Shown here: in pieces, positions 25,201 to 39,235 of the stretch
Layout of the letters: each line of letters begins with the position of its first letter
Numbering within the stretch: the first letter of the stretch is position 1
Source of the DNA: Podarcis cretensis
Lineage: Eukaryota
DNA: 64,000 bases
Assembly: GCA_951804945.1 (NCBI GenBank)
Contig: OX638149.1
Coordinates: forward strand, 102,486,001-102,550,000
Direction: 5' to 3'
Made by a program: the position numbers and the translations under genes
Notes under the pieces: generated by a model
Databases searched by the model: none
What the model saw: only the letters and a program-made list of their open reading frames with translations
What the model was told of the DNA's origin: nothing

Positions 25201-26417
25201 GATGGCACTTGAGCCACCTTTAACCATTGTCAGCATAATAATAACCCTTGTTATCAAGTTGTTTGAATTAATTCTCTCGCATTGGTAAAAGGAAGCTATA
25301 ATTTCACAATACTTAGGAAACACAGTATTCACTGCTACAGAGAATGTGCCTGTTGATTTACTAGCAACACTACATCCTAAGTACATGGTTCAGTTATTTT
25401 GTGCCATTGGCTCAGCTGAAAAATAATGAAACAATAATATAATGTGCTTATATAGGACCCCAGCATGAAGGTTTTTTGGCACTTCACAAATATAGCCCAA
25501 AACATATGGCAGCATTGCCTTCAAAATTCCTGGGCTAACAAGTTGGAAGGGAACAGGAAGAATCCCAATAACCCAAAAATGAAACAGAACTGAACTTTCA
25601 ATATGTTATATTGTAAGGGAAATATTTAAACATTAAATGTAAATACATACACCACAATTATACCTAATTGAATAGCTTGTGAGACATTCAGAAGTCTAGA
25701 GGGATAAGAATGCTCTAAAATGATATTTTGCAGGGTACTGCTGGCATTGGCCAGCATGCTGATTATACCACAAATCTGGAAAACTGGCAAATTTAGGGAA
25801 ACTTTAGATGTTCTTCCAGCTATGTGGAAGGTGCTTATCTGTATGCAGAATGTTTAAAATTGCTAACCACCTGGCCAAGTTATGTGAGTCTTTCCACAGA
25901 ATTGGCAACTCTCTACGGGGTTCCGATTCCATGGGAAAGACCTACATGAATGGCTCTCTTCCATGTGGGTGGATCATTTAATTCCCCCTGCCCCTGGCTG
26001 TATGAGAGCTGCTCATAAATAAGCAGTATTCACACAAATAAGACAAACCATCTCATAGGCAATAAGCACAATAATTTCACCTCATCCCCACCTAAAGTGT
26101 GGTGAAATCTGCCTTATGATTTGGGAGAATGATTCAAATTGCCTGGGATGAGAGAGACTTCCCTAGAGTAGTTTTATTTCTTGTATAGTCAGTCTCTTTA
26201 GCTATGCAACAGTAGGATGAAAGGGTTGTAAAATAGTTATGTCGATGTGACAATCACCTGTTCTAACCTCTCACTGAAATGGGTTGTACCACCTCAGATC
26301 ATGGTGGGGAAGGTCTCATAACTGAATGTTGCTCGATAGTAAAAATAATAATAAATAAATAAAAGGGCCCCTCATAATTTTAGTTCACCCATCAACCATG
26401 TATACATAATATGTAAC

Positions 26418-27242
26418 TGTCAGAGCTGCCCAAGGTCCCAGCTCACAGAGGACCAACGCCAGGTCGTTGTTATATACAAAAGTCTTTATTGAAGTTCAGT
26501 TTCCATTCCAAAGCCGTAGCGCGCAGCTCTACGTCTTAAACCCTAGACCGCCGAAGTTCCGTCTGAATCTCCTCCCCCCTGACACCAGTTTAAGATTTTA
26601 GCCCTGCTCCACCTCTTCCTCTGCTCTCTTCTCCTCTGGGTCCTCCTGTCCGCTGGGGCATTCCCCTTTCTGGACTCTTCTGACGCTGAGTCCCCTGACT
26701 CCTCCCCCTGCCTCCTGCGGGCTTTAGGACCCGGTTCCCAATCCTCGTTCTCTGCTGCCCTGCGCGCCTGTACTTTTGAACTTGGCTCTCGCGCCAACGC
26801 AGTGACCTTCCTCCTGACCGTTACACTGCTTCTGTCACTGCTTCCCTCTTCCGGGATGCTAGCTGGACCTGACCTCCCCTCCGTTGCCTGACTCTCCGAT
26901 GGAGGCGTGGTCAGCCCTGACTCCTCTTCTCTCCCTGCTGGGGGAGATGCTACCCCCAATACCTGGGACTCTTCCCCCCCACTATGCTCAGGTGGGGAAG
27001 CTGGTCCTGATCTCCAACTGCTGCTCTGGGAGTCCCCGCTGGCCCCTTGCTTCTGGAGTGTCCCCCTTGGGACCCCCCTTGCCCTGGCCACCGGCGCCCC
27101 CTTCTGTGAATCTTCCGATTCGCTGGAGAGGCTCATGGAATCTCTCGGGCCACTGTCATCTTCTCCTACGCTGCCCTCAGATTCTTCCCCTTCGCTCTCC
27201 ATCTCCCCTCTTCCCTGTGCTTCTGCTCCTGAGCCCCTGACA
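26418..27242 (-). mobile_element. Solo LTR (825 bp) of an LTR retrotransposon or ERV
   Basis: TG...CA ends with short inverted repeats TGTCAG / CTGACA; perfect 5-bp TSD GTAAC (26413-26417 / 27243-27247); on the minus strand a TATA-like TTTAAG (~26535-26540) then AATAAA (26485-26490); GC- and CpG-rich relative to flanks. Confidence 0.9.
26543..27202 (-). CDS. Hypothetical 219-aa ORF filling the putative U3 of the solo LTR (acidic/Ser-rich N-terminus, Arg-rich C-terminus)
   Basis: ATG at 27202 (GAGATGG context); frame is open from the first base of the LTR and ends 2 bp before the TATA-like motif. I recognise no homologue. Confidence 0.4.
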   Translation of the reverse strand: MESEGEESEGSVGEDDSGPRDSMSLSSESEDSQKGAPVARARGVPRGTLQKQGASGDSQSSSWRSGPASPPEHSGGEESQVLGVASPPAGREEESGLTTPPSESQATEGRSGPASIPEEGSSDRSSVTVRRKVTALAREPSSKVQARRAAENEDWEPGPKARRRQGEESGDSASEESRKGNAPADRRTQRRREQRKRWSRAKILNWCQGGGDSDGTSAV

Positions 27243-27268
27243 GTAACAAACAATTCTGTAATAATATA

Positions 27269-27555
27269 CAGTGGTGCCCCGCAAGATGAATGCCTCGCAA
27301 GATGAAAAACCCGCTAGACGAAAGGGTTTTTCGAGGTGCTTCGCAAGACGAATTTCCCTATGGGCTTGCTTCACAAGACGTTTTCGTCTTGCGAGTTTTT
27401 TCCCTCCCCCCCCTTTTTCTAAGCCGCTAATAGCCACTAAGCCGCTAATAGCGCTAATCCGCTAAGCTGCTAATAGGGATGCTTCGCAAGACAAAAAAAC
27501 CGCTAGATGAAGAGACTCGCGGAATGGATTATTTTCGTCTTGCGAGGCACCACTG
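27269..27555 (+). mobile_element. Tigger/pogo-like MITE, family B
   Basis: TIRs CAGTGGTGCCCCGCAAGA / TCTTGCGAGGCACCACTG, TA TSD, internal GCAAGACG/GCTAGACG and GCCGCTAA repeats. Confidence 0.9.
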
Positions 27556-37660: not shown

Positions 37661-38516
37661 TCATAGAATCATAGAATCATAGAGTTGGAAGAGACCATAA
37701 GGGCCATCGAGTCCAACCCCCTGCCAAGCAGGAAACACCATCAGAGCACTCCTGACATATGGTTGTCAAGCCTCTGCTTAAAGACCTCCAAAAAAGGAGA
37801 CTCCACCACACTCCTTGGCAGCAAATTCCACTGTCAAACAGCTCTTACTGTCAGGAAGTTCTTCCTAATGTTTAGGTGGAATCTTCTTTCTTGTAGTTTG
37901 GAGCCATTGCTCCGTGTCCGCTTCTCTGGAGCAGCAGAAAACAACCTTTCTCCCTCTTCTATGTGACATCCTTTTATATATTTGAGCAGGGCTATCATAT
38001 CACCCCTTAACCTCCTTTTCTCCAAGCTAAACATGCCCAGCTCCCTTAGCCGTTCCTCATAAGGCATCGTTTCCAGGCCTTTGACCGTTTTGGTTGCCCT
38101 CCTCTGGACACGTTCCAGTTTGTCAGTGTCCTTCTTGAACTGTGGTGCCCAGAACTGGACACAGTACTCCAGGTGAGGTCTGACCAGAGCAGAATACAGT
38201 GGCACTATTACTTCCCTTGATCTAGATGCTATACTCCTATTGATGCAGCCCAGAATTGCATTGGCTTTTTTAGCTGCCGCGTCACACTGTTGGCTCGTGT
38301 CAAGTTTGTGGTCAACCAAGACTCCTAGATCCTTTTCACATGTACTGTTCTCAAGCCAGGTGTCACCCATCTTGTATTTGTGCCTCTCATTTTTTTTGCC
38401 CAAGTGCAATACTTTACATTTCTCCCTGTTAAAATTCATCTTGTTTGTTTTGGCCCAGTTCTCTAATCTGTCAAGGTCGTTTTGAAGTGTGATCCTGTCC
38501 TCTGGGGTGTTAGCCA
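37661..38516 (-). mobile_element. Young 5'-truncated CR1 LINE (ORF2 C-terminal part plus 3' end)
   Basis: Minus [15 protein letters not shown]...[12 protein letters not shown]...EKDLGVLVD...[16 protein letters not shown]...LEKRRLRGD; (ATTCTATG)n terminal repeat; a single TGA at 37834-37836 (likely CpG-decayed CGA), with the frame continuing to ~37741. Confidence 0.96.
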
Positions 38517-38600
38517 GTGTTCTGATACACAATAACATACCACTACCAATGTTCTGATACACAATATCATAATACCAGTGTTCTGATACACAATAACATA
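38514..38600. repeat. Three tandem copies of a 26-bp unit at the CR1 5' junction
   Basis: CCA(G/A)TGTTCTGATACACAATA(A/T)CATA at 38514, 38546 and 38575. Confidence 0.92.
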
Positions 38601-39235
38601 ATTTGGGTGTGAAAAAAAAAAGTGTTGAGTCAAATAAAATAGCTTCGTTATTTTCATTAAGAAAACATAGACAGGAAACTGTATTTCCTGAGATAAGAGC
38701 ATGCCTTTCAGGTCATTAACTCTTGAAAGAAAGGAGGCCTGGATACTCCCTATAAAGATTTATCTCTGTGATTTCAGGGCATTCAGATGTCTTAAGCCTG
38801 AGTTTTAATCCCTTGCAGCTACCTGGCATGGTGTCACCCTTGCATGTTACTTCTAAATCTTTATTGCTTTCTACAGTTATGGTGCCATTCCCGCTGGAAT
38901 CAAGCTTACTCGCCACATTCGTTCCGACATTCTTTCACACTTCATAAGCCTCCATACCATCATTAATTAGGAGATATTTCCTCCTGAAAGTCCCCTGTAT
39001 CTCCCTGATGGTGCATGAAGAGATATATCTGCTCCACACCAAATTGCTATATGTCTCCCATTGGTCATTATCATTTTAGGACAAGCAAATTGGTTCTAAT
39101 GTCTGTGGCCATGGAAGGAGGAGCGTAGCTTCCCATACAGGAAATGTGTCTGTAACTTAAAAGCAAGAGGTGCCTAAGAACTTCTGAGTGAATATGCTTA
39201 AATGACAGTATTTTGGATTCTTCTCTAAGCCACCT

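Follow-up and report, generated by a model that had tools for sequence, protein, structure and literature searches.

The open frame of a Podarcis solo LTR as the C-terminal end of a chromovirus Pol

In the 64,000-bp stretch of Podarcis cretensis DNA analysed here (the window), positions 26418..27242 of the minus strand are occupied by a solo LTR of 825 bp with TG..CA ends, flanked by perfect 5-bp target-site duplications GTAAC (26413..26417 and 27243..27247) and assigned to subfamily A of a Tf1/sushi-type chromovirus. One minus-strand frame is open from LTR base 2 to a TAG at 26545-26543, giving 232 codons, or 219 residues if counted from an ATG at 27202. The question raised by this locus is what a frame covering most of an LTR encodes. 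A preliminary description had proposed an accessory gene of the Rev/Nef/Sag type, and its account of the element ends, the duplication and the frame proved accurate: the 14 stop triplets in the ORF span fall eight and six into the other two frames with none in frame, and four S/T-P repeats and an Arg-rich end are present.

By itself the open frame of the window copy is weak evidence, being only mildly unusual against shuffles. Shuffling the LTR 3000 times with dinucleotides preserved gave a frame of at least 232 codons (any of six frames) 43 times, and 3000 mononucleotide shuffles gave one 126 times; T accounts for 112 of the 825 bases and U3 is purine-rich. A Pfam search with the 219-residue ORF alone matched no family, and a tandem-repeat search did not find a long DNA array underlying the S/T-P repeats. 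The 40 best LTR matches in the genome are all about 99% identical, and the LTR family of the window is, as judged from its copies, large and young. Among 30 LTR copies fetched, 28 have a target-site duplication and 25 keep the frame open, while the exact 14-letter LTR-end pattern of subfamilies A-D occurs 5361 times genome-wide.

One of the two fetched copies without a target-site duplication (L008) carries a polypurine tract and an integrase upstream of the LTR. Full elements encode gag (Retrotrans_gag, Ty3_capsid, CCHC) overlapping pol, and neither Pfam nor the element maps show an env gene. The pol domains are PR, RT, RNase H, H2C2, rve and SH3_Tf2-1 (Pfam on P0003/P0004), the last match (E 2e-14) corresponding to a GPY/F (SH3-like) module after the integrase core. 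Beyond this module, family G harbors a chromodomain matching Pfam Chromo (E 4e-10). The equivalent region of the window's family and of its sister family E lies below Pfam detection; it is 50% identical to G over 56 residues, and a profile search with the chromodomain retrieves HP1/CBX structures. This post-SH3 region of A-E is best described as a degenerate chromodomain, with Arg at the position of the aromatic-cage Trp. By its domain content and priming mode the element is classified as an env-less Ty3/Gypsy chromovirus of the self-priming Tf1/sushi type, which settles the choice between Gypsy, BEL and ERV left by the preliminary description in favor of the first. In a tree built without Sushi-ichi or Tf1 references, A-E and F/G group together (100/100), next to elements from amphisbaenians and frogs, the closest named database relatives being from the vertebrates Rhineura and Ranitomeya (support 90/84); A-E and F/G are 69% identical in RT and 60% in the integrase core. 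The gag/pol overlap measures 187 nt (L064:3560-3746 and L252:2341-2527) and contains a GGGAAAC heptamer, a likely -1 frameshift site.

The open frame of the LTR is continuous with pol. In the natural copy L064 a pol frame of 1591 codons passes the chromodomain, an acidic stretch of about 150 codons and the polypurine tract, then crosses the entire U3 and ends at the same stop as in the window. Unbroken pol frames ending in the 3' LTR comprise 1591 codons in subfamily B, 1556 in E and 1351 in G, and the automatically annotated Podarcis muralis proteins P0006, P0019 and P0020 have the same pol-into-LTR layout. From chromodomain to stop all 30 E copies examined have a single unbroken frame. Among 30 older copies of A/B/C, 7 are unbroken, 5 are in frame with a stop, 13 are frameshifted and 5 are unscorable, the respective numbers for 30 F/G copies being 6, 5, 15 and 4. 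The chromodomain-plus-tail region spans 250-445 residues and ends inside the LTR, which contributes from 100 codons (G) up to 232 (A). Anatomically, then, the LTR frame is almost certainly the C-terminal end of Pol in a Tf1/sushi-type chromovirus. In the window, 26543..27241 (minus strand) represents the last 232 codons of pol plus the TAG and the distal part of a likely integrase tail, predicted to be disordered; this assignment is based on the pol of L064, which reaches the same frame and stop, and on the database Pol P0006, which ends at the equivalent residue.

The ORF occurs in every LTR because it is U3, which is copied into both LTRs. Each solo LTR thus carries a headless piece of the tail that its own promoter would not transcribe. 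An accessory gene of the Rev/Nef/Sag type is refuted by the continuity with pol in an element without env. The ATG favored as its start (27200..27202, minus strand) is an internal Met codon, present in A-D and absent in E and in P0006, and the LTR frame of G has no Met at all. The accompanying suggestion that translation might begin upstream in the internal region was correct, as the frame runs in from pol. A P4-ATPase gene model of Podarcis muralis (P0022, UniRef A0A670JKR6) ends in the LTR-encoded C-terminus of family G; this ending would be either a gene-prediction artefact or the exonisation of a solo LTR.

The LTR also harbors an 11-nt self-primer (26554..26564, minus strand; LTR positions 679-689) complementary to the primer-binding site (PBS) of full elements, which is likewise 11 nt long and begins 2 nt past the 5' LTR. 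In the Tf1 model, the RNA starts at the first base of the primer. By this model the transcription start and the U3/R border are predicted at the first base of the self-primer, window position 26564. The predicted start precedes the TAG by 19 nt, so that the frame would cover all of U3 and end in R. The TTTAA 2 bp past the TAG and the AATAAA at 26490 were correctly placed by the preliminary description, the latter being a polyadenylation signal in R (26485..26490, minus strand); its U3/TATA layout was not confirmed, since with the predicted start before the TAG the TATA-like motif would lie in R. A better placed candidate is the TATA-like CTTAAA at 26589..26594 (minus strand), at -30 of the predicted start and overlapping the ILN codons, with a putative promoter function. 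Expression of the protein from the LTR's own promoter would be at odds with the same geometry, the predicted start site of a solo LTR lying 3' of nearly the whole frame. The stop codon is found 18-22 nt past the self-primer in every family examined, and in full elements it falls about 19-22 nt into the predicted R.

Self-primer and PBS pair at 10 or 11 of 11 positions in 47 of 48 LTR-leader junctions, and they covary between families with compensatory variants in at least five versions. In a predicted R-U5-PBS fold the self-primer pair is outermost, with a stability no better than that of shuffles (z -0.18), and the case for self-priming rests on the covariation for this reason. Self-priming marks the Tf1/sushi chromoviruses (PMC6317226). 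The sequence TGTCAGGGG at window 26584-26576 (LTR 659), 20 nt before the predicted start, repeats the first nine bases of the LTR.

Selection on the LTR frame was assessed across subfamilies. In four subfamilies 8-17% apart the frame is open in 34/47, 23/32, 27/36 and 27/30 copies. The corresponding counts in small groups are 3/4, 0/3, 0/1 and 0/1, a fifth group consisting of one E copy missed by the filter. It is open as well in the sister family E, about 35% diverged, and in distant families. Subfamily-fixed indels within the frame are all multiples of three (-3, -39, -63, +3 and one +3/-3 pair), while three fixed indels after the stop are 1 bp each. Rare indels within the frame are multiples of three in 4 of 27 cases, and a +1 in a run of G, present in 7 copies, is never fixed. 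Net dN/dS ranges from 0.33 (CI 0.24-0.47) to 0.44 (0.32-0.61), below 1. The other forward frames give 0.87-1.53, and the reverse frame that shares the codon register follows the coding frame with 0.41-0.49. In four parts of the frame the ratio is 0.18-0.66, below 1 in each. Between B and E the LTR part yields 0.32-0.51 at dS 0.8-1.2, values biased downward by the protein-guided alignment at this distance, and RT-RH yields 0.04-0.07; this comparison across a greater distance is the firmer one. The probability that a frame without selection remains open over 0.3-0.4 changes per site is about 0.001-0.005.

Other values speak against selection. Within groups pN/pS amounts to 0.42-0.53, with N/S of 0.78 for private and 0.36-0.73 for fixed changes; Fisher contrasts of fixed against private changes gave p<0.05 in 1 of 7 cases, and pooled independent pairs gave p 0.09-0.27. 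The checks on openness, indels and dN/dS named in the preliminary description favor a coding frame, and its view of the frame as coding, selected and basic at its end is supported. By these comparisons, the LTR frame is a real coding region, loosely constrained and under moderate selection. Loose constraint fits a disordered tail, which is expected to evolve in this way.

What is conserved in the tail is short. Common to A-E and F/G are an FxGF in an acidic/Ser context after the chromodomain, a D-V-R at the LTR start and an end motif consisting of an Arg-rich run followed by (I/V/L)LxW, predicted as a short helix (26585..26647, minus strand). The acidic-then-basic order of charges is kept across clades. 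No gap is needed to align the end motif of A-E with that of F/G, the Arg codons differing between the clades, and together with FxGF it recurs in a third family (P0028). In each clade the LxW codons keep a set distance of 22-24 nt to the self-primer that follows them, which ties the frame to the promoter geometry, and part of the end-motif conservation may reflect constraint on promoter DNA. AlphaFold models the last 60 residues with low confidence (pLDDT 58). FxGF is located upstream of the LTR in all lacertid families, once in A-E and mostly twice in F/G. The motif recalls the TND-interacting motifs (TIMs) that bind LEDGF/HRP2, which need FxGF, an acidic linker of 8-16 residues and a helix (PMC9987994); downstream of the FxGF of A-E no obvious helix is seen by eye.

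The four degenerate S/T-P repeats (26852..27007, minus strand) are variable, partly deleted in some subfamilies by in-frame losses of 39 and 63 bp, and absent in F/G. Both they and TPPSE are dispensable across families. The earlier ideas about TPPSE as an FBXW7-type degron and about the four repeats were rejected, neither being conserved: they are partly or wholly lost in subfamily D, in E and in F/G. In a profile search of 1.84 billion representatives, tail features occur in 6 of the best 150 matches, 3 of them from Podarcis muralis, the remaining ones among these 150 being chromodomain only or low-complexity; in the frog match no tail of this kind was found.

As to function, the LTR frame is rather likely to be the far end of a long integrase tail, predicted to be disordered, that would serve nuclear import and the tethering to chromatin for integration. 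An import or targeting role of the tail, argued by analogy, stands evenly balanced. After protease processing the tail would stay on the integrase. Its Arg-rich end could be a nuclear localization signal and bind nucleosomes or nucleic acids; the acidic FxGF motif and the degenerate chromodomain, which lie upstream, could serve to contact host factors, in the manner of Ty1 integrase and of plant CRM elements. Divergence of the tail could then retarget a family, for which the sister family E would offer a natural test case. For the window's own families, 0 of 154 sampled LTRs lie in telomere repeats, and solo copies are dispersed without a sharp target.

The foremost rival reading sees the tail mainly as a spacer, with the frame kept open to reach the short terminal motif or to place the stop near the polyadenylation site and with most residues free. 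The tolerated deletions of 39 and 63 bp, the range of the LTR part from 100 to 232 codons, a tail dN/dS 5-10 times that of RT-RH and the near-constant distance of the stop from the self-primer all agree with it. We nevertheless regard it as unlikely: dN/dS is below 1 in all four frame parts, the acidic-then-basic order and FxGF are preserved across clades, and a short pol 3' UTR would presumably not protect the RNA from decay, because most ribosomes terminate at gag, about 4.6 kb upstream.

Considerably less probable is that, besides its place in Pol, the tail is produced separately, as an accessory protein, through splicing of a subgenomic RNA, a reading close to that of the preliminary description. 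The donor-like GTAAGT for this lies directly after the 5' LTR, and the acceptor-like site, with an in-frame Met behind it, lies about where the chromodomain ends. GTAAG does follow the 5' LTR in A-E, but these letters largely belong to the self-priming PBS, and F/G have GC, not GT. A pyrimidine-tract AG is found in two A/B copies 489 nt 5' of the LTR, just before the Met in 'HRPMPA'; in E this acceptor was not found, the sole match being at -352, F/G are without the Met, and the ATG inside the LTR is not conserved either. Contigs from four presumed-RNA runs cover 26-30 of 30 bins of the full element, and a GT-AG joint from the 5' LTR end is absent among the 15 of 16 joints displayed, contigs being unable to show starts, strand or absence. 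That the frame is a by-product of a purine-rich, T-poor U3 and of promoter constraint, devoid of any protein role, is hardly credible and largely refuted, for although 1.4-4% of shuffles yield such a frame and the LxW codons overlap the -30 element, fixed indels are exclusively multiples of three, dN/dS is frame-specific, the frame is open across dS near 1 and its register relative to pol is identical in all families.

The proposed integrase tail can be viewed against the insertion pattern of family E, whose LTR has 784 bp. Family E is very young. Of its 30 best copies 16 are situated in TTAGGG arrays and 14 elsewhere. Across the genome, telomere repeats follow 223 of 733 right ends of E LTRs, compared with 2 of 5361 for A-D, about half of the 733 being 5' LTRs and unable to score. 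The fetched ends of C1, C3, C7 (both), C8, C10, C11, C12, C13 and C19 consist of runs of mostly full-length E in both orientations, separated by telomere-repeat tracts of about 0.1-5 kb. Such arrays of near-identical E elements account for tens of kb at many chromosome ends and in several unplaced contigs; example end arrays in genome G000 are L240, L254-L258 (C3:1-60000), L243 and L259-L265. E elements also occur in interstitial arrays, at C2:4.62-4.65 Mb and at C3:121.8-121.9 Mb.

Within a single E element both LTRs carry the same private variants, while neighbouring elements differ, which is what separate retrotranspositions would produce, and each telomeric copy looks to have integrated separately. 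The target duplication in telomeric E is GTTAG/CTAAC in nearly all cases (one junction has TTAGG), which is the only positive phase of six under the A-D target profile (2.34 bits). Telomere repeats at E LTR edges are also present in contigs of runs X19 and X21, possibly the assembly's own source. Pure age as the cause of the bias is weakened: of equally young G copies, 0 of 18 lie within 60 kb of a chromosome end, and in interstitial arrays at least 12 E ends (among the first 100 listed) contrast with 2 D-type ends genome-wide. The E bias probably reflects real targeting, to which selection, access to telomere chromatin or later recombination may add, the visible insertions being fixed ones.

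Between B and E, identity is 91% in RT, 86% in the integrase core, 76% in the chromodomain and 50-56% in the tail (pre-LTR spacer 56%). The tail is thereby a suspect as the source of the bias, unproven as such; instead of its LTR part, the chromodomain, the pre-LTR spacer, the core integrase or Gag could carry it. That the tail is a retargetable address label, evolved independently of plant CRM and in E retuned to telomeric chromatin, is a tentative proposal that we consider rather doubtful.

The nearest structural parallel is found in plants. The pol of CRM group A reaches into the 3' LTR, where it codes for an integrase C-terminus with the centromere-targeting CR motif (PMC3059260, PMC3605345); in CRM this motif replaces the chromodomain (PMC6317226). 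The lizard elements share with CRM group A (CRM, Beetle; CHDCR) the status of a Ty3/Gypsy chromovirus and a pol running into the 3' LTR. Extension into the LTR is also seen in some Beta Bingo elements. They differ in a vertebrate host, a self-priming PBS instead of tRNA-Met, a chromodomain retained upstream of the polypurine tract and a frame spanning all of U3 into R; the likeness is one of layout. Given self-priming and the retained chromodomain they are not members of CRM. With the Tf1/sushi V-clade (Sushi-ichi, Amn) they have the domain order, GPY/SH3, chromodomain and self-priming in common, and differ from it in the 250-445-residue chromodomain-plus-tail ending in the LTR. The U3 of fish Sushi is described as T-rich in PMC3601003, unlike the purine-rich, coding U3 of the lizard elements.

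Ty1/Ty5 integrases likewise have a long disordered C-terminus with short motifs, in a Copia element whose tail is not LTR-encoded, the comparison being one of layout. For Ty1, a disordered C-terminal half of IN and a targeting domain swappable between elements are reported in PMC8487063 and PMC7459421. In interrupting telomere arrays at chromosome ends in a fixed phase, E resembles TRAS/SART (Bombyx), MoTeR, FoTeR and Ty5. MoTeR is of the non-LTR class, and Ty5 is directed to silent chromatin close to telomeres and not to the repeat itself. FoTeR too is a non-LTR element. E, in contrast, is a vertebrate LTR element, uses an integrase and inserts elsewhere too. TRAS/SART are non-LTR telomere-repeat elements (PMC4700185).

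The viral genes invoked at the outset are similar in one respect each. The coding sequences of HIV nef and MMTV sag overlap U3, and HIV Rev has an Arg-rich run; the lizard frame has coding over U3 and such a run, but belongs to an element without env, has no conserved start of its own and is fused in frame to pol. A literature search yielded neither a lizard or other vertebrate chromovirus whose pol traverses U3 nor an LTR element situated in the telomere arrays of a vertebrate; subscription papers, supplements and Repbase/Dfam, where the layout may be described, lay outside the search in both cases. The available portions of PMC3601003 and PMC13700897 mention neither the layout nor an LTR element in telomere arrays.

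On the Pol reading, thousands of 'ORF-bearing solo LTRs' in lacertid genomes become headless integrase-tail pieces, and a vertebrate parallel to the plant CR motif emerges in which promoter, self-primer and protein end would share the same 60 bases. The clade provides a natural comparison between families with an RT/integrase core 86-91% and a tail about 50% identical and with telomere-repeat insertion differing some 800-fold. Should the tail be responsible for this difference, it would represent a compact module for telomere targeting and open a new approach to site choice by LTR elements. E, if the pattern holds true, would be an LTR retrotransposon colonising vertebrate TTAGGG arrays and constituting much of the chromosome ends, and its arrays matter for measuring telomere length, for assembly and for the evolution of chromosome ends in lizards.

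Several further observations were made. Targeting of centromere satellite by A-D was considered and is unsupported at C1:1-310 kb, where nested elements, a 46-bp satellite and telomere tracts (15 stretches) are found. The segment C1:1-260000 (L268-L281) is a dense nest of A-D and E with the 46-bp satellite, internal telomere tracts and 29 A-D LTR ends. Copies with internal sequence are enriched near chromosome ends (16 of 40 within 1 Mb), and at the start of C2 (L286, C2:1-10000) a D-type LTR is inserted in a satellite with a TRF period of 500 bp. In the window itself, a 287-bp MITE with CAGTGGTGCC terminal inverted repeats and TA flanks, presumably Tc1/mariner-like, occupies 27269-27555, 21 bp from the target-site duplication of the LTR. 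A 292-codon open stretch at 37834-38712 (minus strand) resembles the reverse-transcriptase 3' end of CR1-type LINEs.
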